This document shows positions 6,014 to 63,369 of a DNA stretch of 64,000 nt, piece by piece. This DNA comes from Chloroflexota bacterium. GTDB taxonomy: Bacteria; Chloroflexota; Limnocylindria; P2-11E. The DNA lies in contig VBDU01000080.1 of NCBI GenBank assembly GCA_005883625.1, positions 41,453 through 105,452 on the forward strand, written 5' to 3'. Below the pieces are notes generated by a model that had not been told where the DNA came from, did not search any database, and was given only the letters and a program-made list of their open reading frames with translations. Position 1 is the first letter of the stretch. Each line of letters begins with the position of its first letter. The position numbers were made by a program, and so were the translations under genes.

Positions 6014-6654
6014 GTGTCGCGGGGACTCCGCCCCCGCGTCCCCCCGTCCTCGTCAAGCTCCGCGAGGCGCTCGCGGAGCTTCGCCATCGCGAGCCGCACC
6101 CGGCTCTTCACGGTGCCGAGCGGCGTTCCGGTCCGGGCGGCGATCTCGCGCTGCGAGTAGCCGCCCCAGAAGGCGAGGCCGAGCACGTCGCGCTGCTCCG
6201 CGGGCAGGCCCGCGATCGCCTCGCGCACGCGCTCGGCGCGCAGGCGCGCCAACACGCGCTCGTCCACACGTCCCTCGGCGGTGAGATCGAATGCGGCGTC
6301 GATCATCGTCTCGCGCTCCAGTCGCTTGCCCTTCGTCCGGCGCCAGTCGATGGCGGCATTGCGACAGATCGCGAGCAGCCACGTGCGCACCGATCCGCGC
6401 TCCGCGCGATAGCTTCGCGCCTGGCGCCAGACGGAGTGGAATGCATCCTGGGTGACCTCTTCCGCGGCCTCGGGACTTGCGACCATGCGGAACAGGACGC
6501 CGAAGGCGACGCGACCGTACCGGTCGTAGAGCTCGCCGAGCGCCTCGGCGTCTCCCGCGGCGATCCGCTCGATGAGCCGCATGTCATCCGACCCTTTGTC
6601 GGCCCTTACGACATCGGCGGCATTCTCGGATGACCGGGACCTGTCGACCGGCAC
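6010..6654 (-). CDS. ECF (sigma-70 family) RNA polymerase sigma factor; the real start is probably the internal Met near 6582
   Basis: Region 2 and region 4 motifs (FDVLFRMV..; GYSQREIAARTGTPLGTVKSR). Confidence 0.8.
   Translation of the reverse strand: MPVDRSRSSENAADVVRADKGSDDMRLIERIAAGDAEALGELYDRYGRVAFGVLFRMVASPEAAEEVTQDAFHSVWRQARSYRAERGSVRTWLLAICRNAAIDWRRTKGKRLERETMIDAAFDLTAEGRVDERVLARLRAERVREAIAGLPAEQRDVLGLAFWGGYSQREIAARTGTPLGTVKSRVRLAMAKLRERLAELDEDGGTRGRSPRDT
6019..6045. repeat. G/C hairpin repeat (GCGGGG-loop-CCCCGC plus C-run) inside the ECF sigma 3' end
   Basis: Inverted G-run/C-run, then TCCCCCC. Encodes the Gly/Arg/Pro-rich C-terminal tail. Confidence 0.5.
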
Positions 6655-6655
6655 A

Positions 6656-9600
6656 TTATTGCCACTCGCGGGCGGCGATCTTCACGAAGAGGCGAAGCCC
6701 GTCGAGCCGTTTGGCCAGGACGGAGATGACGCCGTCCACCGTCTGCAGCGCGCCCGCGACGACGATCGCCGATTCGCTGTCCAGGACGCGCTTGTACCGC
6801 TGGTACGTCGCCGGACGGATGATCACGTTCGCCATCCCTGTCTCGTCCTCGAGTGAGAGGAACACGTGGCCTTTCGCGGTCTCGGGGTGCTGTTTCACCA
6901 CCACGGCCCCGGCGATGTGGACGAGCTCGCCGTGACGATGGTCTGCCAGATCGCAGGCGCGAAGGACCCCGCGCCTTTGAAGGTCGTCGCGGTAGAAGTG
7001 CATCACCTGCGGGCCGGTCGGGATGCCGGTGATGCGGTAATCGAGCGCGGTCCGCTCTTGCTCGCCGAGCGCGGGCAGCGCCGGCGCCTCGGTCGTGGGG
7101 AGCGCGAGCGCGCGCCTGGCGTACGAGGGCGAGGTCCGATGCGCATCGCGCGCGCGCCAGAGGAGCGCGCGGCGCGGCTCGCCGAAGCGATCGAACGCGC
7201 CGACGAGCGCGAGATTCCGCAGCGCTTCCTCCTTGAGGCCGGCGCGTGCTGCGAAATCGTCGAAACCCCTGAACGGTCCGCCGCGCCCGCGCTCCTCGAC
7301 GATCGCCTTCGCCTCCGCATCGCCGAGTCCCTTCACGCTCTCGAGCCCGAGCCTCACGTCGTGAACGCGACATGTCCGATGGGCCGCGATCGTCCGCGAT
7401 GTGTCGACTGGATGCGCCGACGAGGCCGCCGAGGCTTCTCGGGATGTCTCGCGTGCTCGCGGGTCCCTTCTCCCCGTCCTGTCGGATGGCTCGGAGCCCC
7501 TGACGGCCGGCTCGCTGGGGGAGAGTCCCGCTCCGCCGCGAGACACCCCTCGCGCCTCGTCAGCCCCGTCGGCACCGGCTCAGTCCCACAGCTCGACAAT
7601 CGCTTTCGCAGAAGACTCGTTCACTTCGACCGGCAGGATCGCGACGCCGTGTCTCTTCGCATCCCCCGCGATAACAGCAGGGCTGTAGAAGCCCATGGGT
7701 TGATTGTTTAGGAGCGCGACATAGAACTCGGCGGGGTAGTAGAGCTTGAGGTGCGCGGTGTGATACGCGGTGAGCGCGAACGCGGCCGCGTGGCTCTTGC
7801 AGAACCCGAACTCCGCGAACCCCGCGATCTGGTGGAAGATCTCGTTCGCGGTCTTCTCGTCGACGCCGTTGCGGCGCGCGCCGTCGACGAACGGACCGCG
7901 CAGCCGCTCCATGTCCGCGCTCGAGCGCGCGCGGCTCATCGCGCGCCGCAACAGGTCGGCCGCTGCCGGGGAGAACCCCGCGACGGTCATCGCGACGCGG
8001 AGGATCTGCTCCTGGAAGAGGATGACTCCGAGCGTCTCCTTCAGCACCGGCTCGAGGAGGGGATGCGCGTATCGCACCGGCTCCTTGCCCTGACGCCGGC
8101 GGATGTATGGATTCACCGCGTTCCCCTGCAGCGGACCGGGGCGGATGATCGCGACCTCCACGACGATGTCCGCGAAGCAGCGCGGCCGCACGCGCGGGAG
8201 CGCCTGGGCCTGCGCGCGGCTCTCCACCTGGAACAGGCCGATCGTGTCGACCTCGCAGATGAGGTCGTAGACCGCCGGGTCGTCCATCGGGATCGTGCCG
8301 AGCTCAAGGCGCTCGCCGTGCCGCGCCTCGATGTCCGCGACCGCGTCCTTCACGAGCGACAGCGTCCGCAGGCCGAGGAGGTCCATCTTCACGAGTCCGA
8401 GGTCCTCCACGTCGCGCTTGTCGAACTGCGCGACGTTGCGCCCGGGCATCGTGGCGCGCTCGATCGGCACGGTGTCCACGAGCGGCTGCGCGGTGATGAG
8501 CATGCCGCCGTTGTGGATCGAGAGATGGCGCGGGAAGTCCGCGATGGCGAGCGTCAGCTCGCGGAAGAGCGGAAAGCGCTCCCGCTCCTTCGCGTCGAAG
8601 ATCTCGAGGAGCCCTTCGAGCGTGTCCGGAAGCGCGCGCGGTCCCTCCCAGCCGTGCTCCGCCTCCCGTCCGGGATGCCGGTAGGCCGGATGCATGGCCG
8701 CGCTCGGGTAGATGGTCGGATCGACGTGGTACTGGTCGATCGACTTCGCCATCCGGTCGATCGTCTCCGCGCGGAAGCCGAGCGCCTTGGCGACCTCGCG
8801 CGAGGCGGAGCGCGCCCGGTACGTCACCACGTTGCAGACCATCGCCGCGTAGCGCTCGCCGTACTTCGCGTAGACGTACTGGATGACCTCCTCGCGGTCG
8901 TTCGTCGCGATGTCGAGGTCGATGTCGGGCATGGTCCGCGAGTCCTCGGTGAGGAAGCGCTCGAAGAGGAGGTCGTGCTTGATCGGGTCGACCTTCGTGA
9001 TGTCGAGGACGTACGCGACGATCGAGTCCGCCGCCGAGCCCCTGCCCTGCGCCGGGATCCGGCGCTCCTTGCAGAAGCGGACGATGTCCCAGTTGATGAG
9101 GAAGAACTCCGCAAGCCCCGTACGGTCGATCACGTCGAGCTCGTGCGCGAGCTGCCGCGAGACGGCCGGCGTGATGCGCGGGTAGCGCTCGCGCGCGCCC
9201 TCCTGGCAGAGGGCATAGAGGAAGGAGAACGCCGTGTGGCCTTCGGGGACCGGGAAGCCCGGGAGGCGGTCCTTCCCCACGAACGTCGAGGGGGCGTCGC
9301 CCCCTCGAACCCCCGGTCCCAGGCCGAGGAGATCGTCGGCGCACGCGTCCGCGATGACGCGCGCGTTCCGGAACGCCTCATCGAAGCGGTCCAGGCGCTG
9401 ACGGAGCGAGACCTCGTCCTTCAGCCAGTACTCGCCGTTCGGCTTGAGCGCCTTCCCCGCCTCGTCGAGCGTGAGCCCGAGATCGATGCAGCGCAGGACG
9501 TCATGGAGCCGCCGCCCCTCCGGGCGCGCGTAGTGGACGTTGTTCGTGACGACGCACCCGAGCCCCTGCTCCCCAGCGAGCGAGGCGAGCGTGTCGCAGA

Positions 9601-10114
9601 TCACGGGATCGTCGGGATCGAGGTGATCGGAGAGCTCGACGTAGCAGCGCTCGCCGAAGACCGAGGCCAGCCGGGCGAGCGTCTCGCGCGCCGCGTCGAG
9701 GTCGCCCGAGCGGACCGCGCGCGGCACCGCCCCGTGGGCGCAGCCAGTAAGCGCGAAGAGCCCCGCGGCGTTCTCGCGGACGAGCGCGAACGTCGCGCGC
9801 GGCTTGGTCTTCTCGCCCGCGAGCTGCGCCGCCGAGATGATCCGGCAGAGGCTCGTCCAGCCCTGACGATCGCGGGCGATGACGACGAGGTGCCCGGCGT
9901 CCAGCAGGTGCAGCTCGGCGCCGTAGAGCGGCTTGAGGCCGCGCTCTCTGGCCGCGTTCGCGAACCGCACCGCGCCGTAGAGGCCGTTCGTGTCGGTGAG
10001 GGCGAGCGCGTCCATGCCCGCGTCGGCCGCCGCGTCGACGAGGTCGCCCACGTCTGACGCGCCGTCGAGGAAGCTGGAGTTGCTGTGGCAGTGCAGCTCG
10101 ACCCAGCCAGGCAT
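6656..10114 (-). CDS. dnaE2: Error-prone DNA polymerase DnaE2/ImuC, interrupted by an in-frame TGA at 7580-7582 (same frame continues for 296 more codons)
   Basis: PHP domain MPGWVELHCHSNSSFLDGAS, Pol III alpha palm/fingers, then HhH (VKGLGDAEAKAI) and OB fold after the stop. Both segments share one frame (codon first bases are 1 mod 3). Confidence 0.85.
9287..9316. repeat. G/C hairpin repeat (CGAGGGGGC-GTC-GCCCCCTCG, then AACCCCCGG), in-frame inside dnaE2
   Basis: 9-bp perfect stem, 3-nt loop. Translated as GPGVRGGDAPS. Confidence 0.6.
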
Positions 10115-10166: not shown

Positions 10167-10194
10167 GACTATCTGAGCCCGGGAATGGGCGCGA

Positions 10195-12058
10195 TCAGGA
10201 CTTGCCCGGCGTGACCGTGGCGCTTGCCGAGGCAGGACCCGAGGCGAGGGTGCCGTCGCTGGCGATCACGCTGACCGTGATGACATCCTCGTTGCTCCCG
10301 TTCCCCTTCACCGACAGGTCGTAGCTGTCGGTCGTCGCCGAGGTGGTCGTCGTGCGCCTCACGACACCGTTCAGCCGCCAGGTGTACGTGAAAGTGAGCG
10401 GATCACGGTCGAGGTCCTGGCCGGCGGCCGTGGCGACGAGCACCGTGCGCGTCGTCGGCTTCGTCGTGTTGAGCGAGACGCCCACGGTCGGGGCCGAGTT
10501 CACGATCGTCGCGCTCGCCGAGGCCGCCCCGCTCACCAGCGTCCCGTCCGACGCGGTGACCTCCACGACCAGGGTGTCGCCGTGATCGCCGTTCCCGGCG
10601 ACACCGAGGTCGAAGCTGTCCGACGTATTTGGTCCCGACGCCGTCTTGCGGACGAGGCCGTTGATCTTCCAAGTGAACGAGTACGTGAGGACATCGCCGT
10701 CCGCGTCCGCGCCGACCGCGGTCGCGGTCACGACCAGGTTCGTGGCGGGTGCGTTCATCTCCAGGGTCACGCTCACCGTCGGCGCGCTGTCCGCAACGAC
10801 GACAGAGGCACTCGCGGTCGAGCTCAGCTGTCCATCGCTCGCGGTGACGGTCACGCTGATCGTGTCGCCGCGGTCGCCGTTACCGGCGACCGATAGATCG
10901 AGCGAGGAGGTCGGGGTCGTACGCGGCCACGATCGCCTGGACGATGTCATTCGTCCGCGGCGTCGACGGGCTGAAGGCGACGCTCGCGATTACCGGCGCG
11001 TGGTTCGCCAGATCGAGCGCCACCAGCGTGCTGTCGAACGTCGCCAGCGTGTTGTAGTTGCCCATATACAGCCGGCCGTCGGCATGGAACAAGGGCGGGC
11101 CCGGCTCGAAGTTCAGTCCCCCGATCGTCTCGGCGACGTCGAACGTCGTGTCGTCGAGCGCGTAGACGCGCCACCCGGATCCGTCCGTGACGTAGATGCG
11201 ATGCCTCGCCGGCGCCAGCGCGAGCCCCATGGGGAAGCCCGGCACCGACGTGGCGTGCAGCGTGGCGAACGTGTCGGGATCGAGGACGTAGAAGGCGGAT
11301 CCCGGGAAAGGCGGACCTTTCGGGTCCGATCCGGCGATGTAGATGCGCTGATCCGTCGGATCGACCGCCAGAGCGAAGCGGAGTGCGGTCGCGAAAGGCA
11401 CCTCCGCGAGCGTCGACAGGTCACGGTCGTCGGCAACGACCAGCACCGGTCGGGTTTCGTCCGCCGTCGTCAGATAGAGATGGTGCCGTCCGGGATCCAC
11501 GGCGACATCGAACCAGGCCCCGTTGAGGGGGCCGGGCTTCGTCGCGACGACCGTGAGCGTGCTCGTGTCGACGACCGCGAGCGACCGCCCTCCGACGTAG
11601 AGGCGGCCGGCGGCGGAGTCAAGCGCGAGACCGATCCCTCCCACAGCGAGGCTCGCGAGCATCGCGCCCGTATCCAGATCGAAGACGTCAAGCGAGACCT
11701 TGTCACCGCTATGGGTCGAGTTCGACGTATACAGTCGCCGCGTGCTCTGATCAGCGAGCACGAAGTTGGCGCTGAGGGTTGTCGTGATGCTCGCAACCAG
11801 GCCGGTCGCCGGATCCACGACCGAAACACGTCCCGTGCCGTCCGGCGCGACGGTCTCGCTGTTCGACACGTAGACCTTCCCGGTCGCGGGATCCGTAGCC
11901 AGGCCGAGGGGCGCCCGCAGCACAGGCCACTTCGCCCTGATCGTCGCGGCGCGCGCGGGCCCGGGTATCGCGACGGCGAGCGCGAGCACGAGGGTGATAC
12001 AGACGGGGACCGTGAGGCGGCGCATGTCTGCGGAACGCTGCCCGAGCGCGTGCGACAA
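10195..12058 (-). CDS. Secreted YVTN/NHL-type beta-propeller protein with three or four tandem Ig-like repeats of about 80 aa; frame switch between about 10880 and 10950
   Basis: Signal peptide MRRLTVPVCITLVLALAVA, YVTN repeats, then repeats SAPTV..V.ATA.G.D.D.D.LT...TW..NG continuing in another frame (ORFs 10880..12058 and 10195..10950). Confidence 0.6.
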
Positions 12059-12631
12059 CGCGAGTGGGAAGGAAGTCCCAATCGATGACCCTCATGGCCA
12101 CGGTGCGCCTGTTCGGCTGTCGCCGTCGGCCGCGTACTATCCCGGCCATGCGAACGCTGTACGGACGAAGGCTCGTCGAGGTGGCACCGACCCGAACACG
12201 CTCGCCATCGCGCTCGACGCGAGCACCGACAGGCTCATCGATGGTGCACGCCTGGCCCGGCGACACGGCGTGCCGAACGTCCTCTTCGTGGTCTCCTCCG
12301 TCGAGCGGCTCCCGGAACTGCTCGGCGGGATCGCCGATGAGGCGACGATCCACTTCCCCTGGGGGTCGCTGCTGCGGGGTGTGACCTGCGGCGACGAGGC
12401 GGTGCTCGCACCGCTGGCGCACCTGCTGCGCACCGGCGGCCGGCTCGAGCTCGTCCTGCAGGCGAGCGACGTCGCCGTGGACGCGTTCGAGCGGCACTGC
12501 CTCGTGCTCTGCGAACGACGCCCGGCGACGGCCGCGGAGGTCACGAGGACGAGATCGAGCTGGGCGAAACGGCTCGGGATCGGCCCGCAGCGTCCCGCGT
12601 TCGTGTTCCGCTTCGAGCGGATCCGCGAGCG

Positions 12632-13875: not shown

Positions 13876-14651
13876 GAGGCAGCCGCTTCGGCGAGCCCGG
13901 CGCGCCTGCCGAGGTCGGTGGCCGCGGCACCCAGCGCTGGCACCGCGAAGAGCGCACGCTTGTCGAGGGGGCTGTGCCCCCTCGGACCCCCCACTTCGAA
14001 CGTCCAGCCCACGGTCCGCTCGAACCGTCGCTCCCAGGACACACGCTCGAACGTGCAGGTCGGTATGGCCACGCGACGCCCGCGGTCCTCGCTCACCACG
14101 AGGAGCGCCGCAGGCGAGCCGCGAACGCTCGGAAGGACCGGCGCGAGCTCGTCGCTGCCGATCCCGGCGAACGCAGGGCCGGTGTCGACGACGACGAGGC
14201 GAAAGCCTTCGCTGCGCAGGCTCGCCGACGCGGCAAGCGCCGCGGCGCCGGCGGATCGCGCGCGGACGACGACGAGCCGCTCGAGATCGACGCCGGAGCG
14301 AACGGCGGCGAGCGGGTCGAGCGAGGCAGAAGGGTCGATCCAGGCGACCATGCCGCCCGTGCGTTGCGCGGTGGCGACGACCCGGAACGCGAGCGAGAGC
14401 TTTCCCACGCTCGTCGGACCGACGAACGCCAGCGGCTCACCCGCGGCAAGGCCGCCGCCGGTCACGAGATCGAGCGAAGTCCCGGTCGGAAGCGCAAGCT
14501 CGTCGCGGTGACGCTCGCTGGCGCCGCCGCGGGCGAGTGCATGCGTGCCGTACCGCCCTTCGATGCGCGCGATGGCCCTGGCCAGCCCGGTCGATCCCAC
14601 GGCGCTCCCCTGTGCTTCGCTCCGTTCTGTGGCCTGGGCGGCTGGCCCCAT
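13872..14651 (-). CDS. imuA: ImuA (RecA/SulA-like SOS cell-division-inhibitor family); likely start at the internal Met (ORF extends to 14705)
   Basis: GEPLAFVGPTSVGKLSLAF...GMVAWIDPSASLDP...LVVVD, a RecA-fold remnant typical of ImuA. The LexA box sits just upstream of the Met. Confidence 0.7.
   Translation of the reverse strand: MGPAAQATERSEAQGSAVGSTGLARAIARIEGRYGTHALARGGASERHRDELALPTGTSLDLVTGGGLAAGEPLAFVGPTSVGKLSLAFRVVATAQRTGGMVAWIDPSASLDPLAAVRSGVDLERLVVVRARSAGAAALAASASLRSEGFRLVVVDTGPAFAGIGSDELAPVLPSVRGSPAALLVVSEDRGRRVAIPTCTFERVSWERRFERTVGWTFEVGGPRGHSPLDKRALFAVPALGAAATDLGRRAGLAEAAAS
13965..13992. repeat. G/C hairpin repeat (GAGGGGGC-TGT-GCCCCCTC, then GGACCCCCC), inside the imuA 3' end
   Basis: 8-bp stem, 3-nt loop. 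Same architecture as 63344-63369. Confidence 0.6.
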
Positions 14652-14660
14652 CCAGACTGT

Positions 14661-14676
14661 TAGAACGGATGTTCTA
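14661..14676. promoter_or_regulatory. Candidate LexA (SOS) operator TAGAACGGATGTTCTA in the imuA promoter region
   Basis: Same TAGAAC-N4-GTTCTA palindrome as at 10151. Lies between divergent imuA and the small Zn-ribbon ORF. Confidence 0.6.
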
Positions 14677-14766
14677 CAATATGGAGGCACGACAGGGACT
14701 GTCAAGTCGTCGTGGGCAGGGAGGCGTTACAAAGCGTGGCCGCATTCATGCAGCCCTCCCGTCCAA

Positions 14767-16328: not shown

Positions 16329-16393
16329 GCGGTGGAATCAGTGTGCGGGGTCGCGCGATGAGGCGCGTTGCAGCCGGGTCACTCCTCGTTCTG

Positions 16394-21734: not shown

Positions 21735-24182
21735 CTACCACCTGAACGCCAGCTGCTGGCCCATTTGTTCCACTGCAGGTTCGAGGCCCAGAACGGCTTC
21801 CAAGCCGTCCAGGCCGGCCTCCGGGCGAGTGGCCCAGGACCGCAGCGGGCCCCACTTTACGAAGCGCCAGGCTCGCCGTCGAACGAGGTCCGCGAGGGCC
21901 GGGGAACGGCGCAGCTTGACCTCGGCCAGGGGCCGGCGCTCGTCCGCGATCGCGAGGAAGCGGAAGACGCGGTCCTCGTCCGGGATGGATTCGCCGATAC
22001 CCGCCACGCTGCGGTGCAGCCGCGCCGTCCACTCGAGCTGCCAGCAGAAGACCATGCGGCCGCGGTCGTGCCACAGCACGTCCACGTACTCCAGGGCGTC
22101 GGCGGTCTGGCGCGTGAGCTGCGCGACGCGGGCGGCACGCTCGGCCTCGGTGAGGAGATCGGCGAGGACCGCGCCGCGATCGGCGAGGCCTGCGGGCAGC
22201 GCGCGCCGCTCGAGGTCGCGCCCGACGTGGACCTTGAAGCCGAGGCGCCGGCCGACGTCGACGAGCTGCGCGGCGAGGAGCGTCTGGTCGGCCTGCCGGC
22301 GCACCAGGCCGTCCTCGTCGCGCAGGCGCCACCGTCCGTCGTCGCCCTGGCGACCGTAGGCGGCGATGCACCGCTCGACGAGCTCGCGGTCGGGCGTCTC
22401 GATGCCGCGAAACAGCCCGTAGCTCCGGCGGAGGAGCGCGCGCGTCTCGACGTCGCGCGCCGACGAGAGAAGCCCCCAGACCGCCCACTCGACGCGATCG
22501 TCGAGCGGCGTCGTGTCGACCGGCTCCGTGAGCGCGTAGAGCGTCGTCTCGGCACGGTGCTCCGCGTTCGCGCCGTCGAGCGTCAGGCGTGTGATGCCGG
22601 AACGACGGCCGTCGGCGAGCGCCGAACGGAAGTGATCGAGGAACTGCTCGAGCTCCGAGACGCCGCTCGCCCGCGCGAGCGCGAGCGGCGCGAGCAGGCG
22701 CCGGGCGCCAAGGGACTCGAGCGCCGCGACCCCGGCGATGTCGGTGCCCGCGGGCTCGCCGCGCGTCACGATCGCGTCGCGCACCCCGGCGCGGATCGCG
22801 TCCTCGATCGCGGCCGCGTCCGCCGCGGGCTGATCGCGCAAGAGCGGGACGTCGCGGTCGAAGTCGCAGAGCGCCGCGGCGCCGCTTCCCCCGCCCACCG
22901 TCGCGAGTGCGTCGCGCTGGTAGACGATGCCGCGGAGGCGGTAACCCGCGCCGGCCGCGGCGAGGACGACCGCGGCGACGCTCGCCAGATCGGCATGCGG
23001 GACGTACACGACCGCGGGCGCCTCGGGACGCGAGCCGCGGTGCCCGTCGATGAGCGCGGCGCGCATCGTGCGGAGCAGGCGCTCGCGCGCAACGACGCGT
23101 CCCTCGCCAGAGTCGGGGGGCTTCACCCCCCGGCCCCCGAGAAGGACGATGCTGGCGACGGCGGCCCATCCGCCGAGCACGTCTTCGACGGGCGCCTGGC
23201 AGAGGACGAGGTCGGCGTCGCCCGCGTCGAGCGCGATGGTGCCGGCGCGAGCGCGCGCGGGCGGCGTGTGGTGCGCGAGCCATGCGACGAGCTCGCGGAC
23301 CGTGCGCTCGAACTCGAGCCACACGTTGATCTCGCGCGACTGGGCGGCGTGCGATCGGCGCGCGCGCCCCTTCTCGAGGCGGAGCGGAGAGCCGTGCCCG
23401 GCGAGCGCGTTCAGCCGGCTGCCGCCCAGGAGCACCTCGATGAAGCAGAGCTTGAGGAAGTCCGACACTCCGGGGGGTCTGAGGGGGGCGCTGCCCCCCT
23501 CAACTGTTGTCTCGATCGCGCGCAGCGTCGCCATGAGGGCGGTGAGGTTGCGCGGCGTGTAGAGCGCGGCGACGCTCTCGCCGAGGGCCTGCGCCGCGGG
23601 GTCGGGGCCGAAGCGCTCGACGAGCTGCCAGTACGCCATCCCGCGGGCCTCGCATCGGCGCGCCGACTCCGCGTCGGCATCGGTCGTGGCCTCGATCAGC
23701 AGGGCGCGGCCGTCGCGCGCGCAGATCCCGCAGCGGAACGCCTTCTTCGTCGGCGCTTGGGCGTCGCGGTCCCACAGGAACGCCTCGACGATGACCGGGC
23801 CGCGGCACGTGGCGCAGGTCGAACCGTAGAGCTCACGCATCCCGACGCGATGCGGCGTGCCGACGAGCGCGCTCTCGCCGACGCGGTCGAGCGCAGCGAG
23901 GATCTCGTCGCCGCGCGGAGCCGTCGCGACGACCAGGCGCGCCCATTCGCCGAGACGCTCCCGCGAGCGCGCGATGCCGCGCCGGTCGGCGGCCTCCGCG
24001 GCGTCGGCCGCCGACCACGGATGCCCGAGCGGGTCGAGGACGATCCCCCGACGCGGCGAGTACGCGGACGCGTAGAGCGCTGCGAGCGCCGAGGGGAAGG
24101 CGGTGCCGAAGCGGTCGAGAGGCCGCGGGAGCGGGAGCGTGTCCAGCGGGACGATGGACCGGACGCGCTCACCCTGGCTCAA
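21735..24182 (-). CDS. Large (about 815 aa) uncharacterised protein with an internal CxxC...CxxC zinc ribbon; TTG start overlapping the upstream stop (TTGA)
   Basis: CATCRGPV...[10 protein letters not shown], long non-repetitive sequence. No recognised catalytic motif. Confidence 0.5.
23114..23140. repeat. G/C hairpin repeat (CGGGGGG-CTTCA-CCCCCCG, then GCCCCCGA), inside the large hypothetical gene
   Basis: 7-bp stem. Encodes GG..PP-like peptide. Confidence 0.55.
23481..23501. repeat. G/C hairpin repeat (GAGGGGGGC-GCT-GCCCCCCTC), inside the large hypothetical gene
   Basis: 9-bp stem, 3-nt loop. Confidence 0.55.
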
Positions 24183-25993
24183 GGCAACGTGAAGAGTACG
24201 GCCCTCCTCGCGTCCACGACCACGCCGACGGTCTTCCCGTCGCGCGAGACGACGACGTCCTGCACGGTGCCGCCCGCGCCGAGCTCCTCTATCGCTCCGT
24301 CCGAAGGCGCGATCGCGATGAGCCGGTCGACCCCGTCGACCACGACCGCCCGGCGACCGACCGCGAGCCGCCGGCCGTCCGTGAACGTCGTCGTCCAGCG
24401 GCGCGAGCCGTCGGGCGCGAACGACGTGAGCGAGGTCTGATCGAGGAGGTACAGCGTCGCGTCGGTGCCGAACGCGATCTCGCGGACCGGCGACGCGAGC
24501 CGCGTCACCGTCTTCGCGTCGGCGAGCGAGACGCGATAGGTGCCCTGGTCGGTGATCGCGGCGACCGTCTTCCCGGCGCGATCGACCGTGAGCGCTCTCC
24601 CGGCCCCGGGGATCCGCGCCAGCGCGCGCAGCGCGCCGTCGCGGCCGGGCCGGAAGATCTCGACGTCGTAGCCGCCGCCGCTCGTCGTGCCGACAAGGAC
24701 GTCGCCGGCGTCGGTCACCGCGACCTGCGCGCCCGCCGCGGGCGTGACGATCGGGAAGGGGTCGCCGAGCGGCACGCCGTCCGGGGCGCGGCCGCCGATC
24801 ACCCCGGCGCCGCCGGAGGGCTCGCCCGTCGGTCCTTTTGAGGTCGCGACGAAGAGCCGCGTGGTCGGCACGAACAGGAGCTGCGTCGCCACGTTGTTGA
24901 AGCGCATCGGCGTGCCGACGACCTGCCCGGCGGGCGCCGTCAGGAACGTGAGCGTCTGGCCGCCGAGCGCGAAGAACCGAGCGTCGTCCGAGAAGGCGAG
25001 CGCGCTCATCCCGGCAAAGGACTGCGGCAGCGCGCGCAGCGTGTCGGCGGGATCGAACAGCGCGGCCTGCCCGCCGTCCGAGCCGGTGAGGATCCACGTA
25101 CCGTCGTCCGACAGGGCGATCCGGCGCGCCGCCGGGGCGCTTTCAAGGACCCGGGAGGGCTCTCGCCACAGCTCGGCGTCCGGGACGGGTCCGCTCCGCG
25201 CGAACGTGTACGACTGGTCCTGGCTCACAAGGCTCACGATCCCCTGGCTCGCGAGCTTCGCGACGACTTGGGCCGCGGCGTCTGCGTCGGGGTACGGGCC
25301 GAGACGCACGACGAACGGCGCGGTCCGCGTGAGGGCGGCGTTCTGAGGGGAGCCAATGGCCTTGAGCGCCTGTTCCGCGTCCGCGACGGTCGTGTACGGA
25401 CCGACGGTGACGGTGTGCTTCGTCGCCGCGCTCGCGGTGACCACGAACGACGTGCCCCGAGCGATCGCGCTCTCGAGGACGTCGTCACGAGGAAGCGCGG
25501 TCGACAGATCGCGCAATCGCTGCCAGCCGGCGGTGACGTGGCTGATGACCCGCGCGAACGCGGCGGGGTCGACGGCGTCGGCGTACGACTGCGCGTCTCG
25601 GCCGAGGTCGGTGAGGCCGTCGGCGAGGGTGACGAGCTTGTCGCGGATCGGGCCGGCGCGGTCCACCGCCGCCCCGACGACGCCGGCGCTATACGCGGAG
25701 ATCGTGTTCGCCGCGCCGCGCGCGACGACGCCGTAGCGCGCGGGGGTGACGGTCCGCGCCTTCGCGCTCGAGAGCGCGCCGGCGAGCCCGTAGTCGTACG
25801 CGGCGAACTGCAGGAGGATCGCGCCGGCGTCGCGCGCGAGCTTCGTGCCGGCCTCGGCGTCGCGCGACGGCGCGACCTTCAGCGGAGCTTCAGTGCACGC
25901 GCCGAAGAGGAAGATCGCAGCGATCGTGAGGATTGCGATGGCCGGGGGCGTGCGGGGGGTCCGAGGGGGGCGGAGCCCCCATCGACCGATCAC
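24179..25993 (-). CDS. Lipoprotein with SPOR-like domain and C-terminal beta-propeller (PQQ/WD40-like)
   Basis: Hydrophobic leader AIAILTIAAIFLFGAC, TVTVGPYTTVADAEQALKAIG (SPOR-like), repeated xGxxxV/TxDG blades. GTGA overlap with the upstream TPR gene. Confidence 0.6.
   Translation of the reverse strand: MIGRWGLRPPRTPRTPPAIAILTIAAIFLFGACTEAPLKVAPSRDAEAGTKLARDAGAILLQFAAYDYGLAGALSSAKARTVTPARYGVVARGAANTISAYSAGVVGAAVDRAGPIRDKLVTLADGLTDLGRDAQSYADAVDPAAFARVISHVTAGWQRLRDLSTALPRDDVLESAIARGTSFVVTASAATKHTVTVGPYTTVADAEQALKAIGSPQNAALTRTAPFVVRLGPYPDADAAAQVVAKLASQGIVSLVSQDQSYTFARSGPVPDAELWREPSRVLESAPAARRIALSDDGTWILTGSDGGQAALFDPADTLRALPQSFAGMSALAFSDDARFFALGGQTLTFLTAPAGQVVGTPMRFNNVATQLLFVPTTRLFVATSKGPTGEPSGGAGVIGGRAPDGVPLGDPFPIVTPAAGAQVAVTDAGDVLVGTTSGGGYDVEIFRPGRDGALRALARIPGAGRALTVDRAGKTVAAITDQGTYRVSLADAKTVTRLASPVREIAFGTDATLYLLDQTSLTSFAPDGSRRWTTTFTDGRRLAVGRRAVVVDGVDRLIAIAPSDGAIEELGAGGTVQDVVVSRDGKTVGVVVDARRAVLFTLP
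25955..25970. repeat. G/C hairpin repeat (GGGGGGC-GGA-GCCCCC) at the TPR/SPOR gene junction
   Basis: Preceded by GCGGGGGG. Encodes the Arg/Pro-rich leader of the SPOR lipoprotein ORF. Confidence 0.5.
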
Positions 25994-26916: not shown

Positions 26917-26976
26917 CTCATCGCGGGCACGCTTCGCTGACAGGGGCCCCTGCCCCTGGGCCCCCGCACCCCCTAG
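26917..26976. repeat. GC-rich repeat element, copy A (CTCATCGCGGGCACGCTTCGCTGACAGGGGCCCCTGCC..GGGCCCCCGCACCCCCTAG)
   Basis: Near-identical to 39493-39567. Contains the self-complementary core CAGGGGCCCCTG. Confidence 0.7.
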
Positions 26977-47395: not shown

Positions 47396-48247
47396 TCACA
47401 GGCTCCAGCGGAGGTCCTGGCCGGCGACCCGGAAGGCGTTCAGGAAGAATCCGATCCGCTCCTTGAGCTGGTCCCGCGGGACGACCTGATCGACGAACCC
47501 GTGCTCGAGGAGGAACTCCGCGCGCTGGAACCCGGTCGGCAGCTTCTCGCCGATCGTCTCGCTGGTCACGCGCGCGCCGGAGAAGCCGATGAGCGCTCCC
47601 GGCTCCGCGAGGACGATGTCGCCGAGCGACGCGAACGAGGCGAGCACGCCGCCCGTCGTGGGGTCGGTGAGCACAGTGACGAACGGGATGCCGGCGGCGT
47701 CGAGGCGCGCGATCGCGCCGATCGTCTTGGCCATCTGCATGAGCGCGATCGTGCCCTCCTGCATCCGCGCGCCGCCGGAGGCCGCGACGATGACGAGCGG
47801 CTTGCGCTCCGCGAGCGCCCGCTCGGCGGCGCGGGTGACCTTCTCGCCCACGACGCCGCCCATCGAGCCGCCCATGAACTCGAAGTCCATCACCGCGAGC
47901 ACGACGGGGATCCCCGCGAGCGCCGCGTCTCCGGTGATGACCGCGTCGCGGCGCCCGGTCTTCGCCTGCGCGGCCGCGATCCGCTCGGGATACGGCTTGC
48001 TGTCGACGAAGCCGAGCGGATCGGTCGAGGAGAGATCGGCGTCGGTCTCCCTGAACGAGCGCGGGTCCGCCAGGATCTCGACGCGCTCCTTCGCCCCGAG
48101 CTTGAAGTGGTGCCCGCACTTCGTGCACACGTTGAGGTTCCGCGCGAGCTGCTTGTTGAACAGCATCTCGCCGCAGCTCGGGCACTGCGTCCAGAGGTGC
48201 GAGGGGAATTCCTTCGGCCTTCTGCCGAACGGGTTGCGAAGCCTCAT
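47396..48247 (-). CDS. accD: Acetyl-CoA carboxylase carboxyltransferase beta subunit; likely start at the internal Met, since the ORF-track N-terminus reads through a hairpin repeat
   Basis: N-terminal Zn ribbon CPSCG...CTKCGHH. CT-beta motifs. Confidence 0.85.
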   Translation of the reverse strand: MRLRNPFGRRPKEFPSHLWTQCPSCGEMLFNKQLARNLNVCTKCGHHFKLGAKERVEILADPRSFRETDADLSSTDPLGFVDSKPYPERIAAAQAKTGRRDAVITGDAALAGIPVVLAVMDFEFMGGSMGGVVGEKVTRAAERALAERKPLVIVAASGGARMQEGTIALMQMAKTIGAIARLDAAGIPFVTVLTDPTTGGVLASFASLGDIVLAEPGALIGFSGARVTSETIGEKLPTGFQRAEFLLEHGFVDQVVPRDQLKERIGFFLNAFRVAGQDLRWSL

Positions 48248-48249
48248 GC

Positions 48250-48285
48250 GTCGGGGGGGCAAAGCCCCCCCGACCCCCCAAAGGT
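48250..48285. repeat. G/C hairpin repeat (GTCGGGGGGGC-AAA-GCCCCCCCGAC, then CCCCCCAAAGG) between degV and accD
   Basis: 11-bp perfect stem, 3-nt loop. Confidence 0.65.
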
Positions 48286-50418: not shown

Positions 50419-51317
50419 GCGCGCCGGACCTGCGCCCCCGCCGCGCGCACGCGCACGACGCGTCCCCGCGCGCTCGTCCCGCGATCGTGCGCGGCCTCTT
50501 CCATGGCCGCGACCACGCGCGCGGCGAGCCGCGCCGGAGCGAACGCGACGATCGCCGGTCCCGCGCCGGAGAGCGCGGCGCCGAACGCGCCTGCGCCGCG
50601 CGCAGCCCCGACGACGTCGTCGAGGTCAGGCACGAGCTTCGCGCGCGCGGGTTGATGCAGCCGGTCCGCCATCGCGATCGAAAGGAGCGCACCGTCGGAG
50701 CGCAGCACCGCGGCGAGGAGCGCCGCGGCGTGCGCGAGGTTGAAGACCGCGTCGGCGCGCGAGACGTTCGGCGAGAGGACCGCGCGGGCCGTCTCCGTCT
50801 CGAGCGCCTCCTTGGGGATGAGCAGGCAGATGCGCCACGCCCGCGGGAACGCGATGCGGGTCGCGACCGGGCCGGCGTCGTCGGGGACCGCGACCGTGAA
50901 CGCACCGTAGAGCGCCGCCGCGACGTTGTCGGCGTGGCCTTCGACCTCGCTCGCGACACGCAGCAGCGAGCGCCGATCCAGCGGCTCGCCGAGGAGGGCG
51001 TTCGCCGCGACGACCCCGCCGACGATCGCCGCGGCGCTCGAGCCCAGGCCTCGCCCGACCGGTATCGCGGAGCGCTGCGTGACGTGCTGCGGCGGGAGCG
51101 TCGCCCCCGCGGCCTTCGCGGCGGCACGCGCGCCGACGACGAACAGGTTGTCGTCGCCGGTCGGTACGCCCTCGCCATCGCCGTCGATCGAGACGGCCCA
51201 TGCGCGCGCCGGCCGCACGTCGTACTCCGCGAGAAGCGGGAGGGCGATCGCGAACGAGTCGAATCCGGGGCCGAGATTCGCGCTCGACGCGGGAACGCGG
51301 ACCCGAAGCTCGGTCAC
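50415..51317 (-). CDS. thrB: Homoserine kinase
   Basis: GHMP kinase motifs PASSANLGPGFD and GLGSSAAA. GTGA overlap with thrC. Confidence 0.8.
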   Translation of the reverse strand: MTELRVRVPASSANLGPGFDSFAIALPLLAEYDVRPARAWAVSIDGDGEGVPTGDDNLFVVGARAAAKAAGATLPPQHVTQRSAIPVGRGLGSSAAAIVGGVVAANALLGEPLDRRSLLRVASEVEGHADNVAAALYGAFTVAVPDDAGPVATRIAFPRAWRICLLIPKEALETETARAVLSPNVSRADAVFNLAHAAALLAAVLRSDGALLSIAMADRLHQPARAKLVPDLDDVVGAARGAGAFGAALSGAGPAIVAFAPARLAARVVAAMEEAAHDRGTSARGRVVRVRAAGAQVRRA

Positions 51318-52396
51318 GCGTTGGGGGGGCGATGCCCCCCCATCCCCCCGATCGCTCTGCGTACCGCGTCGGCGCTCGCGTCGACCTCGTCGATCTCGCC
51401 CGCGAGGGTGCGCGCGCGGTCGGGATCCTTGAGCCCGTTCCCGGTGAGCACGCACACCACCTGGCGGACGCCCTCGAGGCCGCCCGCCTTCGCGCGCTTC
51501 CGGAGCCCCGCGATCGCGGCCGCGGAGGCCGGCTCCACGAACACGCCTTCACAACGTGCGGCGAAGCGATATGCAGCGAGGATCTCGTCGTCGCTGACCG
51601 CCTCGATCGCTCCGCCGGACTCGTCCCGAGCCGCGACGGCTCCCTTCCACGACGCGGGGTTGCCGATCCGGATCGCCGTCGCGAGCGTCTCGGGCTCGGC
51701 GATCGGCCGCCCGGACACCAGCGGCGCGGCGCCTTCCGCCTGGTAGCCGAACATCCGGGGGCGGCGCCGCGCCATGCCGGCGCCCGTCGCCTCGACGAAC
51801 CCTTTCCAGTACGCGGTGATGTTCCCCGCGTTGCCGACAGGGATGAAGAGCGCGTCGGGAGCGTCGCCGAGCGCCTCGCACACCTCGAACGCCGCCGTCT
51901 TCTGTCCTTCGAGCCGCAGGGGGTTCACGCTGTTGACGAGCGTCGCCTCGCCCGCCGCGGCGAGCTCCTTCACGACGGCGAGCGCCGCGTCGAAGGGGCC
52001 TCGCACCGATACGATCCGCGCCCCGAAGGCGACCGCCTGCACGAGCTTCCCGAGCGCGACCTGACCCGCGGGCAGGACGACGGTACAGGGGATCTGGGCC
52101 CGCGCCGCGTAGGCCGCGGCGGAAGCGGCGGTGTTGCCGGTCGACGCGCAGAGCACCGCGCGGGCGCCGCCCTCGAGCGCCTTCGCGACCGCTACGACCA
52201 TCCCGCGGTCCTTGAACGAGCCGGTCGGGTTCGCGCCTTCGACCTTGAGCCAGATCTCCGGGACGCCGGTCTCGCGCTCGAGCGAGCGAGCGCGGACGAG
52301 CGGAGTGCCTCCTTCGCCCAGCGTGAGACGCGGTGTGCGTTCGCTGACCGGGAGATATGCCGCGTAACGGTCGATGAGGCAAGGCGCGCCCGGCAC
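51314..52396 (-). CDS. thrC: Threonine synthase
   Basis: PLP-fold, NPTGSFKDRG lysine motif. C-terminal tail runs through a hairpin repeat. Confidence 0.9.
   Translation of the reverse strand: MPGAPCLIDRYAAYLPVSERTPRLTLGEGGTPLVRARSLERETGVPEIWLKVEGANPTGSFKDRGMVVAVAKALEGGARAVLCASTGNTAASAAAYAARAQIPCTVVLPAGQVALGKLVQAVAFGARIVSVRGPFDAALAVVKELAAAGEATLVNSVNPLRLEGQKTAAFEVCEALGDAPDALFIPVGNAGNITAYWKGFVEATGAGMARRRPRMFGYQAEGAAPLVSGRPIAEPETLATAIRIGNPASWKGAVAARDESGGAIEAVSDDEILAAYRFAARCEGVFVEPASAAAIAGLRKRAKAGGLEGVRQVVCVLTGNGLKDPDRARTLAGEIDEVDASADAVRRAIGGMGGHRPPNA
51322..51350. repeat. G/C hairpin repeat (TGGGGGGGC-GAT-GCCCCCCCA, then TCCCCCCG) at the thrC 3' end/thrB start
   Basis: 9-bp stem, 3-nt loop. Encodes the thrC tail GGMGGHRPP. 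Confidence 0.65.
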
Positions 52397-59004: not shown

Positions 59005-59024
59005 CACGCAGGCGGCGAGCGCCC

Positions 59025-60045
59025 TCACGAGCGCGCCTCCGCGCGCAGGCCGGCGAGCGCCGCGACGAGGACCTCCTGCTCCCCGGGGGGCCGGACCGCG
59101 ACGCGTAGATGCTCCGGCAGACCGAAGCTCGCGCACCAGCGCACCGCGATGCGCCGGTGGGCCAGAGCGCGAACGATGCCCTCGGCACGAGACCCCGCAT
59201 GCGCGAGGACGAACGGCGCCTCGCTCGGGACCGCCTCGAGACCGTGCGCCGCGAGCGCGCGCACGAGGCGCTCGCGCCACGCGGCGATCGTCAGCCGCGC
59301 GTCCGCTCCGAGATCCCATGAGGAGACCGCGGCCGCGGCGCACGCGTGCGCGCCTGGGCTCCAGGGATCGCGATGCGCGCGCAGCGAGGCGATGCGGTCG
59401 CGCCGCGCGACCACGTAGCCCACCCGCAGACCGGGCGCGGCAAGGATCTTCGTGAGCGAACGGACGAGCATGGCGTCGCCACCCGCGATGAGGTCGGCCG
59501 CCGGGACCGACTCCCCCGCGAACGGCGCGAACGACTGGTCGATCACAAGGCGCGTCCGTGGCGGCAGCGCGGCGAGGATCGCACGCATCTCCTCGGGCGC
59601 GAGCCGCCGTCCCGTCGGGTTGTTCGGATCGCAGACGAACGCGAGGGCCCACGACCGCGACGAGAGCGCCGCGGCGAACCGCTCCACCGGCGGCACGAAG
59701 GCCGGCGCCTCGGCGCGGATCTCGGCCGTCGCGCCGCCGCGCAGCGCGACGAGGCGCGCGTACTCCCCATAGGTCGGCCCGAGCACGAGCGCTCCGCCGG
59801 CGGCCCCAGCGACGATGAGCCGGAGGGCCTCGGTCGCCCCCGCGGTGAGGAGGACGCACCCTTCCTCGACGCCGGCGTCCGCCGCGAGGTGCCGTTCGGC
59901 TTCGCGCGGATCGAGGTCGGCGTAGGCGCCGTAACCGGCGCCCGCAACGGCGTCCCGTACCGCCTGGGGGGTCCCGCACGGGTTCGGGCTCGCGCTGAGC
60001 TCGAGCCAGCCGCGCGGCGCGCCACCGTGCGCCGCCGGGACGGTC
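59025..60045 (-). CDS. cobD: L-threonine-O-3-phosphate decarboxylase (class I/II aminotransferase fold)
   Basis: PLP-lysine region LTKILAAPGLRVGY. GTGA overlap with cbiB. Confidence 0.8.
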
Positions 60046-62244: not shown

Positions 62245-63182
62245 GGCGTGCCGAACAGCTCGGGGTGGATGATCTTCGCGTAGGCCTCGAACCCGAGCAC
62301 GAGGCGCGGCCCGGGCCGGCTCACGAGGTCGTCGTCGATCGGATAGATCGCCCGGTTGCGGACCGCGGGGATCCCCGACCAGCCCGGCCGCGCGACCACC
62401 TGCTCGGGCGTCGCGCCGAAGCGGAAGTCCGCGAGCACCACGATCTCCGGGCCGCGAGCGACGACCTGCTCCGCCGAGAGCTGCGGGAACTTCGTGGGCG
62501 CGTCGGCCGCGACGTTCACGCCTCCGCACGTGGTGATGATCGAATCGATGAAGTTGCGCGGTCCCGCGACGAAGATCCGCGCCGGGTCCGTCGAGTCGAC
62601 CTCGTGCAGGACGCGCGGCTGCGAGGTCGCCTGCTTCGCCTTCGTGCCGATCGCGTCGATCCGAGCGCGCATGTCGGCGACGACCTGCATCGCCTTCTGC
62701 TCGCGATCGAACATCTGGCCGACCGCGCGGATGTTCTTGTACACGCCCTCGACGTCGGTCGGATCGAAGATGAAGAGCGGCTGCCCGAGCTGGTCGAGCT
62801 GCGCCGGCAGATTCCCCGACGTGATCGCCAGGATGAGGTCGGGCTTGAGGGCGACGATCTTCTCCGGGCTCGTGCGGACGCCGCCGAGCTTCGGTAGGGA
62901 CTTCGCTTCTGCGGGGAAATCGGAGAAGTCATCGGTGGCGACGATCCGGTCGCCGGCGCCAAGGGCGAACACGATCTCCGTGGCGCTCGGCGCGAACGAG
63001 ACCACGCGGGCGGGCGCGGCCGCGAGCGTGAGGGTCTTCCCGCGGTCGTCGGTGACCGAGAGGGGGTAATGGGCGGCGCTCGCGGTCGGGCTCGCGGGCG
63101 CGGCGGCAGGCGCGGCACAGGCACCGAGGACGAAGAGGAGGACCGCGAGCAACGCGAAGATCCGACGTGACATCTGGCGCAC
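62241..63182 (-). CDS. Periplasmic substrate-binding lipoprotein of a cobalamin/siderophore-type ABC transporter (BtuF/FecB-like)
   Basis: GTG start, lipobox LFVLGAC. Class III substrate-binding-protein fold motifs (RVVSFAPSATEIVFALG). Confidence 0.8.
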   Translation of the reverse strand: MRQMSRRIFALLAVLLFVLGACAAPAAAPASPTASAAHYPLSVTDDRGKTLTLAAAPARVVSFAPSATEIVFALGAGDRIVATDDFSDFPAEAKSLPKLGGVRTSPEKIVALKPDLILAITSGNLPAQLDQLGQPLFIFDPTDVEGVYKNIRAVGQMFDREQKAMQVVADMRARIDAIGTKAKQATSQPRVLHEVDSTDPARIFVAGPRNFIDSIITTCGGVNVAADAPTKFPQLSAEQVVARGPEIVVLADFRFGATPEQVVARPGWSGIPAVRNRAIYPIDDDLVSRPGPRLVLGFEAYAKIIHPELFGTP

Positions 63183-63194
63183 CCCTTTCTCGCG

Positions 63195-63325
63195 AAGGTG
63201 TGTCGGCCGCGAGCGGGAGAGCCAGGCGACCCGAGTTCGGACCAGCGTCCGTCACGGTGGCGCGACCCTGCCGGAGTTGCACCGGCTTCGCTGGGACCCC
63301 GCGTATTCAATTGTCGGTCGGGGGC
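63195..63325 (-). ncRNA. Cobalamin (adenosylcobalamin) riboswitch in the leader of the operon
   Basis: RNA reads ...AGCGAAGCCGGUGCAACUCCGGCAGGGUCGCGCCACCGUGACGG...GGUCCGAAC...CGCCUGG. This matches the CCGGUG-AA-UCCGG and B12-box (GCCACUG-like) consensus. The ribosome-binding site AAAGGGG precedes the GTG start. Confidence 0.65.
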
Positions 63326-63369
63326 TCCGCCCCCAGGTCGAAGGGGGCTCTGCCCCCCTCGGACCCCCC
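63320..63369. repeat. Two tandem G/C hairpin repeats (GGGGGC-TCC-GCCCCC and GGGGGC-TCT-GCCCCCC, then TCGGACCCCCC) upstream of the riboswitch
   Basis: Same unit as 13965-13992. Confidence 0.6.

Follow-up and report, generated by a model that had tools for sequence, protein, structure and literature searches.

Short GC-rich palindromic repeats, probably of a REP-like kind, within and between the genes of a Limnocylindria (Chloroflexota) contig

A 64,000-nucleotide stretch of a Limnocylindria (Chloroflexota) contig (VBDU01000080.1, positions 41,453 to 105,452; hereafter the window) contains a short GC-rich hairpin that recurs at places as different as the inside of dnaE2 and the interval between degV and accD, and the question it raises is what kind of element can occupy such sites and how it came to be there. 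A preliminary description listed 11 copies with a uniform architecture; sequence of the type described is present at all 11 coordinates, and most share the architecture, the departures being the copies at 6019 (a run of only four G residues, G4), 63320 (no C-run of its own) and 46209 (6-nt loop and odd spacer). The reading we favor, with a probability of about 60%, is that of a selfish or neutral palindromic repeat resembling REPs (repetitive extragenic palindromes) and amplified in one Limnocylindria lineage.

The G+C content of the window is 71.5%. A search for the pattern G5-8/N3-8/C5-8 gives ten matches, against means of 0.53, 0.37 and 0.26 in Markov sequences of orders 1, 3 and 5 (100 simulations per order), none of which ever contained more than three. 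This is an excess of 20- to 40-fold over every Markov null up to order 5, and the copy number within the window thus stands up to the comparison with a shuffled model that had been suggested for it. Runs of five or more G (50) or C (67) occur in ordinary numbers relative to the null, so the excess resides in the pairing of the runs and not in the runs themselves. The mirror order, with the C-run before the G-run, occurs twice, one occurrence being the joint between two units. The family supplies five of the ten perfect hairpins in the window with stems of at least 9 bp, and its 11-13 copies with a common consensus correspond to about one copy per 6 kb.

There are several defining features of the unit. 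First, the aligned copies share an oriented consensus, GTC(GA)-G5-7C-NNN-GC5-7-(TC)G-GAC-C5-6, which is common to eight or nine of the ten hairpins; units are about 27-36 nt long with perfect stems of 7-11 bp. Second, in 12 of 22 non-redundant copies (about 2.8 expected) the G-run has a GTC no more than 7 nt upstream of it, and the upstream consensus is GTCGA, the C at position -6 (8 of 22 copies) being at background level. Third, the unit tail is TCGGACCCCC, whose GAC is able to pair with the 5′ GTC, so that the latter is not clearly unpaired. Fourth, the stem GA-GGGGGC is 8 bp with G:C as its first pair, the loop is 3 nt (or 5 counting the closing pair), and the G and C arms agree in length within copies: (5,5), (5,5), (6,6), (6,6), (7,7), (7,7), (5,5), (5,6), (5,6) and (5,6). 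Finally, single units fold as RNA with minimum free energies of -18 to -30 kcal/mol, and the formation of a hairpin is certain. A covariance model (R1) trained on 20 copies scores eight window copies at E-values of 1e-3 to 1e-6 and recovers the weak copy at 6013-6048, absent from its training set, at E=0.027; together with the common oriented consensus, this bears out the proposal that these are copies of one repeat family.

The 20 aligned copies show no base covariation when tested for it, their core pairs being invariant (the outer pairs are kept in about half of the copies), and conserved sequence without covariation is as expected for a repeat rather than for an evolving structural RNA. 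No Rfam family matched any copy in the whole window at the gathering threshold, and neither of the two copies in the interval 62900-64000 was matched at E-values up to 1. The intergenic copies resemble intrinsic terminators in being GC-rich hairpins located just after stop codons, but there is no T-tract 3′ of any copy on either strand and no U-tract following the hairpin, both orientations are used, and many copies are inside open reading frames (ORFs); as previously stated, they are not classical terminators. The hairpin potential attributed to these sequences is real, but the G-quadruplex potential attributed to them is unlikely: four runs of at least three G on one strand define such a structure, most single units have two and the double unit at 63317-63371 has three, and the rival hairpin, at -18 to -30 kcal/mol, competes strongly through the complementary arm.

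The gene identities assigned earlier are right, as judged by Pfam and by independent gene calls. Five of the 11 copies are deep inside ORFs, beginning with dnaE2 (- strand), in which the canonical unit CGTCGA-GGGGGC-GTC-GCCCCC-TCGAA-CCCCC (9282..9317, +; R1 46.4 bits) encodes GPGVRGGDAPST at about residues 265-277, between the PHP and palm domains. A second canonical unit, TGTCGA-GGGGGC-TGT-GCCCCC-TCGGA-CCCCCC (13959..13994, +; 46.6 bits), is in an imuA-like gene of RecA fold (13872-14705, -), where it follows the RecA domain (Pfam) and encodes GGPRGHSPLD. The gene of an 815-aa protein (-) has two copies, the canonical GTTGA-GGGGGGC-AGC-GCCCCCC-TCAGA-CCCCCC on its sense strand (site 1; 23470..23506, -; 40 bits) and the short-spacer unit GTC-GGGGGGC-TTCA-CCCCCC-GG-CCCCC (site 2; 23108..23141, +; 31.4 bits). 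The fifth is the atypical GT-GGGGGC-GGAA-CCCCCC-ACACCG-CCCCC (46203..46243, +), a match to the search pattern to which R1 gives only a weak partial hit (about 9.7 bits, E about 6); it is in the linker of a 141-aa protein like biotin carboxyl carrier protein (45971-46396, -), before the Biotin_lipoyl domain (Pfam, residues 85-138).

Three further copies overlap gene junctions. The weak G4-variant unit GTCGCGGGGACTCCGCCCCCGCGTCCCCCC (6013..6048, +) encodes the last 12 or so codons of an extracytoplasmic function sigma factor gene (6010-6582, -; Pfam and gene calls), the stop codon of which overlaps the anti-sigma start (ATGA). The canonical unit GTCGAT-GGGGGC-TCC-GCCCCCC-TCGGA-CCCCCC (25952..25988, -; 42.7 bits) directly follows the stop of a 286-aa TPR gene and falls inside the opening 14 or so codons of an ORF called as a 604-aa SPOR lipoprotein (signal peptide n-region). 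The short-spacer unit CGTT-GGGGGGGC-GAT-GCCCCCCC-AT-CCCCCC (51317..51352, +; 40.1 bits) makes up the last 11 codons of thrC, encoding the tail GGMGGHRPPNA, and adjoins the thrB start with a GTGA overlap. The remaining three copies are intergenic. The short-spacer unit CGTC-GGGGGGGC-AAA-GCCCCCCC-GAC-CCCCC (48247..48282, +; 39.3 bits) occupies the interval between the degV stop and accD, starting 2 nt after the degV TGA, and has an 11-bp perfect stem (-29.6 kcal/mol, z -3.65). The other two are arranged head to tail, a bare hairpin without its own C-run, GTC-GGGGGC-TCC-GCCCCC (63317..63334, +; partial R1 hit of 16.5 bits, E=0.38), being followed by the canonical GTCGAA-GGGGGC-TCT-GCCCCCC-TCGGA-CCCCCC (63335..63371, +; 46.1 bits). 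The pair folds together at -39.9 kcal/mol, with the canonical unit located just upstream of an adenosylcobalamin (AdoCbl, B12) riboswitch and, at a distance of 2 nt, downstream of the stop that ends an 87-aa ORF (-).

This riboswitch (63174-63314, -) scores 47.5 bits, just under the Rfam gathering score of 50 (E=2.3e-7), and is upstream of a Peripla_BP_2 gene and cob operon; its 5′ side adjoins the two hairpin units. No perfect hairpin in the window is longer than the one in the sigma-factor coding region at 6055-6081 (12-bp stem, AAGCTCCGCGAG GCG CTCGCGGAGCTT), which is separated by 10 nt from the weak unit at 6013-6048 and whose sequence has no relation to the family. Two intergenic sequences are possibly related or decayed copies: CAGGGGC-CCCT-GCCCCTG-GG-CCCCC-GCA-CCCCC, with G4 runs, in the divergent region before mgtE (26935..26968, +; R1 14.8 bits, E=0.76), and GCAGGGGC-GG-GCCCCC-GCA-CCCCC (39537..39568, +; 13.3 bits, E=1.4). 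These two places may alternatively represent a second hairpin family of G4 type (CAGGGGCCCCTGCCCCTGG...). The 11-aa peptide SLRAQGPLPLG is common to two unrelated proteins on different contigs, an orthologue of the 815-aa protein (locus L047) and a DnaE2 (P0013), which suggests that the G4-type repeat also lands in coding sequence.

Copies within 40 nt of a gene boundary or intergenic number six of 11, compared with 15% of the window (P=0.003), and both orientations relative to transcription are found. Eight of ten units are free of stop codons in all six frames, and the translations confirm that in-frame copies in real genes encode Gly/Arg/Pro-rich loops or tails; according to frame and strand the peptides include VEGAPPPRTP, RGGSAPSDP, GGPRGHSPL and GRGVKPPDS, generally rich in Gly, Pro, Arg and Ser. 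The copies lie outside Pfam domains, and at junctions the overlap of stop and start is kept, ATGA becoming GTGA or TTGA. An argument from codon bias, that GGG and CCC would be disfavored, was dropped: GGG accounts for 24% of Gly codons and CCC for 33% of Pro codons.

Are these segments old parts of their genes or later arrivals? Window proteins match soil metagenome scaffolds (ENA CRIT18-1) at 100% identity, their nearest relatives with a name being Chloroflexota of Candidatus Limnocylindria, and orthologues were compared for dnaE2, imuA, both sites of the 815-aa gene, the lipoprotein N-terminus and thrC, with the accB-like and sigma copies left aside. On these alignments every copy compared is lineage-specific and recently gained, and the peptides of dnaE2, imuA, the 815-aa protein and thrC, which had been predicted to be lineage-specific, are indeed absent from orthologues. 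The DnaE2 segment GLGPGVRGGDAPST is restricted to orthologues of at least 96% identity, and 21 of the 22 more distant aligned orthologues have YDTNTPRAEAS or a close variant, the exception (L046) carrying a separate, decayed unit in the same loop; the extra residues align to gaps in Taq Pol III alpha. In ImuA the window has VGGPRGHSPLDKRA in place of VGRPFASDRA (L045), a net gain of 4 aa. The thrC product ends in ...VRRAIGGMGGHRPPNA in the window and in ...VRRVLAES in a relative of 89% identity from the same soil (L128), which has no unit and an ATGA overlap, so that the window has gained 24 nt, or 8 aa; a further relative (L129) has a partial tandem duplicate of the unit.

For the 815-aa gene, 80 orthologous metagenome loci were compared. 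Site 1 spans 14 codons in unit-free orthologues and 21 in the window (+7 codons); it is decayed in L048/49/51 and tandem-expanded to 35-48 codons in L050/L097/L047/L053. Site 2 behaves differently, in that its length is identical in every orthologue. Its loop AAG encodes Lys also in the copy-less L052/L111 and L076 (Arg in more distant orthologues), its arms differ from the closest unit-free relative (L052) mostly at synonymous positions, and the hairpin, whether intact or decaying, is confined to relatives of at least 75% identity. The lipoprotein N-terminus is about ten codons longer than in distant relatives, which have a spacer of 4-20 nt and a shorter N-terminus, and two relatives of 95-98% identity (L097/L102) have two tandem units there. 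This gene belongs to a cluster of three (21735-26850, -) that is kept across Limnocylindria metagenome contigs and consists of the 286-aa TPR protein with an acidic tail, the 604-aa SPOR-domain lipoprotein and the 815-aa protein, which has no Pfam match.

Two other observations concern dnaE2. The window gene has an in-frame TGA after codon 844 (7580-7586, -; ELWD* compared with ELCDG in the 1152-aa P0001), which a cluster of three substitutions has created, as comparison with a 99.83%-identical scaffold (L127) shows, and beyond which the frame continues; it could mark a strain pseudogene or an artefact of the assembly consensus. DnaE2 orthologues also have many Gly/Pro/Arg/Ser-rich indels in one linker (P0001 residues ~842-905, columns 858-940 of alignment A1; also columns 486-500), so that total length varies between 1098 and 1156 aa. 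Similar residue numbers apply to the REP insertions reported for DnaE2 of O. terrae and DnaE of R. conorii, a likeness by number and not by alignment, and the linker indels are possibly decayed repeats.

Across the comparisons, net changes in length are 0, +9, +12, +21, +24 and about +30 nt, all multiples of three, and most new copies overwrite older sequence, with 0-33 nt replaced. Decayed copies are seen in L048/49/51, L053 and L046, and tandem or partial duplicates in L050/L097, L097/L102, L129 and L118. An apparent 72-nt insertion in L003 was dismissed, as it includes an N-gap. Density varies sharply among relatives: 388 kb around the 815-aa orthologues contains 21 copies, of which relatives of at least 75% identity account for 18, and three come from the roughly 290 kb that belongs to relatives at 70% identity or below.

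When one genome per species was searched for exact matches to GGGGGC-NNN-GCCCCC(C)-TCGGACCCCC, 40 loci were obtained. Limnocylindria and other Chloroflexota metagenome-assembled genomes (MAGs) contribute 16 of these, in ten MAGs, and the 8-kb neighborhoods of these 16 loci, ascertained by the exact match, have no copy beyond that match. One Azospirillaceae MAG contributes nine, as part of a larger composite repeat, other Alphaproteobacteria/Pseudomonadota seven, Methylomirabilota two, Streptomyces five and Kutzneria one; by a rough estimate from composition, the Streptomyces matches are near chance and those of Chloroflexota and Alphaproteobacteria far above it. Positions common to two or three Limnocylindria MAGs are the frr/uppS junction, the pntAA tail and a gene for a DUF58-like protein, a set that says little on selection because it was ascertained by the exact motif. 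In the Azospirillaceae MAG (PL23b_bin.89; L006, L009, L010, L014, L020, L025, L030 and L031) the hairpin-plus-TCGGACCCCC lies within a composite repeat ...CCGTTCGGGGGGCGCTGCCCCCTCGGACCCCCGCAAGGGGGGGCACCCCCCTTGACCCCCAC, and in Rhodobacterales (L022, L033 and L037) the same module is followed by GAGGTATTT. A scan of viral contigs with the motif gave no match, and a literature search on Limnocylindria and palindromes found nothing.

To which known class do these units belong? REPs are stem-loop palindromes of about 14-40 nt that are present in many copies per genome and are mainly extragenic (PMC12306157, PMC3733652); they have been sorted into GTAG- and CGTC-tagged superfamilies, favor the 3′ ends of ORFs, and are made up of a stem of 8-9 bp with a loop of 4-5 nt, plus a tag and a tail of 3 nt (Di Nocera, De Gregorio and Rocco 2013, PMC3733652). 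The CGTC REPs have an unpaired CGTC (or TGTC/CCTC) end, A:T pairs at stem positions one and two, a tail fitting CCA and no dedicated transposase; intragenic REPs encode 7-9 aa per unit, many of them in replication or repair genes including DnaE2, and both the small Rickettsia palindromic elements (RPEs) RPE-4 and RPE-6 and the Neisseria dRS3 repeat have been classed with the CGTC REPs, the latter as CGTC-1 (PMC3733652).

The window units have the size and the stem-loop form of REPs. They are like CGTC REPs in their short tag, GC-rich stem of 8-9 bp or more, variable loop of 3-5 nt and short tail, in being dispersed, in preferring ORF 3′ ends or operon junctions, and in having occasional tandem units and intragenic copies, DnaE2 included. 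They are unlike them in five respects. The stem is G5-7C/GC5-7 and not ATTCCCGC-like; its first two pairs are not A:T, the first being G:C, and the loop is 3 nt; the tail is GGA/GAC, or (G)GAC, followed by a C5-6 run and not CCA; the GTC tag is capable of pairing; and about 70% of window copies overlap ORFs, with three of 11 intergenic. We therefore file the family as REP-like or small-RPE-like and not as a member of the CGTC family, whose survey did not cover the class Limnocylindria. Neither is it a GTAG REP or REPIN-RAYT system, the consensus having no GTAG tag and the gene calls of the window, to which this statement is limited, no transposase.

Other precedents agree in part. Like Rickettsia RPEs, the units are in-frame palindromic repeats that give short peptides in tolerant regions of genes and are lineage-specific, being absent from orthologues of dnaE2, imuA, thrC and site 1 of the 815-aa gene. 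This is a likeness of behavior and not of sequence; RPEs are described as insertions, whereas here there is partial replacement, and the hosts are unrelated. The classic RPE-1 is 100-150 bp and AT-rich. The Neisseria dRS3/DNA uptake sequence pairs are likewise short and highly iterated, and lie, often in inverted pairs, near gene ends and in genome-maintenance genes, but here no competence-linked selection is evident, the element is a hairpin with fixed 3-nt spacing, and its density is sharply variable among close relatives. HIP1 (GCGATCGC) is an 8-bp cyanobacterial palindrome present at about one per kb, linked to orphan methyltransferases, hyper-abundant inside and between genes, and arising in place rather than by transposition (PMC5861425, PMC4390886). 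It is the nearest precedent for the 23115 copy (site 2), which seems to have formed in place at fixed length, but HIP1 has no loop or tail, whereas here the hairpin unit is about 30 nt and most copies alter local length. Intragenic repeats of this sort have been described before, and the Limnocylindria family is accordingly a variant that works like a REP or a small RPE.

We propose that the unit is a non-autonomous palindromic DNA repeat of about 27-36 nt, of the REP or small-RPE kind, that would have multiplied in one Candidatus Limnocylindria lineage. Its hairpin has an almost pure G:C stem of 8-12 bp, a free 3-nt loop, possible pairing of GTC with GAC, and the C5-6 tail, and new copies would be written into the chromosome at the DNA level, mostly by overwriting a short target stretch. 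Transposases of the HUH/Y1 type, RAYTs among them, usually act on a hairpin next to a single-stranded tail, and from these two features an enzyme of this type may be suspected as the writer. Once in place, copies decay by point changes and run slippage or have their 3′ arm and tail partly duplicated in tandem, as the relatives illustrate. Survival in genes would depend on the near-absence of stops in six frames, on net lengths divisible by three, the only ones seen, and on every frame giving small flexible peptides of Gly, Pro, Arg, Ser and Ala; copies would therefore persist in harmless places such as inter-domain loops, linkers, signal-peptide n-regions and C-terminal tails, and also in the few bases between operon genes, where stop/start overlaps are kept. 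The intragenic copies are most likely neutral passengers, and at gene ends the highly stable RNA hairpins of the copies may incidentally influence mRNA 3′-end stability or translational coupling.

Several observations weigh against this proposal. The genome-wide copy number is an extrapolation from 64 kb, and eight of the 11 copies overlap ORFs, unlike those of classical REPs. Net gains are mostly smaller than one unit and no clean empty/filled pair was found; the filled/empty comparisons, with 0-33 nt replaced, revealed no target-site duplications, which is not the behavior of a miniature inverted-repeat transposable element; and the 23115 copy is neither longer nor shorter than the sequence it replaced. 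At imuA, at the lipoprotein N-terminus and at an independent hairpin in L062, a portion of one arm is similar to the ancestral sequence, and this fits in-place formation or microhomology-guided copying as well as it fits transposition; thrC and dnaE2 show no such resemblance. No transposase (Y1/RAYT or other) is present among the Pfam-annotated gene calls of the window, the rest of the genome not having been searched, and none of the several 75-136 nt indels and scaffold gaps that separate the window from 99.5%-identical assemblies is linked to a unit, so that no ongoing movement was caught. The orthologue series demonstrates multiplication and turnover and not the act of movement or its enzyme; because no transposase was found, mobility is something that we infer. 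The earlier notion of a miniature mobile element tolerating in-frame insertion survives in its in-frame, lineage-specific gains and not in simple insertion.

The main rival, which we regard as possible and decidedly less probable, is formation in place, in which biased repair or replication would rewrite 20-40 nt of tolerant sequence into a hairpin, either by short-patch copying from existing copies or where Gly (GGN GGN) or Pro (CCN CCN) codons give rise to fold-back or template switching, in a HIP1-like manner. The constant length, pre-existing Lys codon and mostly synonymous arm differences at 23115 are what such a process would leave, as is the QGALPPAAP site in L047-L052, which toggles between perfect and imperfect hairpins by synonymous changes alone. 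In L062 the 5′ arm of the new hairpin, GGGGGGCTT, corresponds to the ancestral GGC GGC CTG and only the 3′ arm was added, the partial matches at imuA and the lipoprotein N-terminus also involve one arm, and every event replaces sequence with none purely adding it. However, unrelated loci share sequence beyond the stem (GTCGA..., ...TCGGACCCCCC), which local fold-back would not give; the ancestral sequences of thrC and dnaE2 have no G-rich seed; and proto-sites and units are about 60-70% similar over 10-27 nt, which is low for homologous conversion and might arise by chance in DNA of 71% GC.

It is unlikely that the copies are selected RNA or DNA signals, acting in 3′-end protection, U-tract-independent termination, translational coupling or inter-domain ribosome pausing. 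The great stability of the hairpins, the enrichment at gene ends and the exact stop/start positions at degV/accD, thrC/thrB, sigma/anti-sigma and TPR/lipoprotein in the window would suit this, as would junction copies at frr/uppS and pntAA/pntAB in relatives, some at the same position in two or three MAGs, though found by the exact-motif search. Yet signals of this kind would not be expected in both orientations relative to transcription, without compensatory covariation or a U-tract, decaying freely in relatives, most of which have no copies at the same junctions; and nearly half of the copies are deep in ORFs, where termination would harm.

A more novel, and similarly doubtful, possibility is that the unit is not a transposon but a self-propagating sequence state, written over 20-40 nt of any tolerant DNA, whether coding or noncoding, by templated repair or fold-back. 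The writing might involve the ImuA-ImuB-DnaE2 or end-joining machinery encoded in these genomes, and the three-run layout (G-, C- and C-run; on the other strand G-, G- and C-run) may be the feature recognized, runs in this order being the classic arrangement from which either strand can form an intramolecular triplex. If true, the presence of the same module in Alphaproteobacteria, Methylomirabilota and actinomycetes would reflect shared mechanism and not shared descent.

It is very improbable that the palindrome is a double-stranded binding site for a dimeric protein (matS, parS or Noc/SlmA-like) or a DNA-uptake-type sequence. The free 3-nt centre and the same core in other phyla would be compatible with one, as would the copies in genes of genome maintenance (here dnaE2 and imuA; in relatives, those of an Lhr-like helicase and an RNase H-like protein). 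But run lengths of 5 to 7 with matched arms shift the half-site spacing, which suits a hairpin and not a dimer site of rigid geometry; with its tail on a single side, the element lacks symmetry; close relatives differ more than 10-fold in density; and viral contigs have no match. Chance from base composition and Gly/Pro codons is effectively refuted, for even though G and C runs are not themselves over-represented and GGG and CCC are fairly common codons, the pairing excess, the common flanks and the rarity of the mirror order remain, and a G-quadruplex motif fares no better, with two G-runs on one strand in most single units and strong competition from the complementary arm.

A REP-like repeat in this lineage would extend REP-type palindromes to Limnocylindria, an abundant uncultured soil class, and would be an extreme case in that most copies overlap protein-coding sequence. 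The units lengthen ORFs, shift apparent starts and stops, and add low-complexity Gly/Pro/Arg peptides, and so can confuse annotation, orthologue alignment and domain prediction. The filled/empty series with replacement offers raw material on the origin of REPs without a known transposase, and the copies could serve as fast-changing markers for strain typing in metagenomes.

Two minor observations are added. Assemblies of 99.5-99.98% identity have extra sequence of 75, 96, 136 and about 110 nt near 10899-10905, 12181-12184, 17116 and 36345-36349, and one assembly (L132) is without some 77-82 nt at 58986-59063; all five places are inside genes, have no obvious flanking repeats, and may represent real strain deletions or assembly artefacts. 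The window also contains a tRNA-Sec gene (16393-16486, -; Rfam 75.2 bits), for which ARAGORN gives the anticodon TCA.

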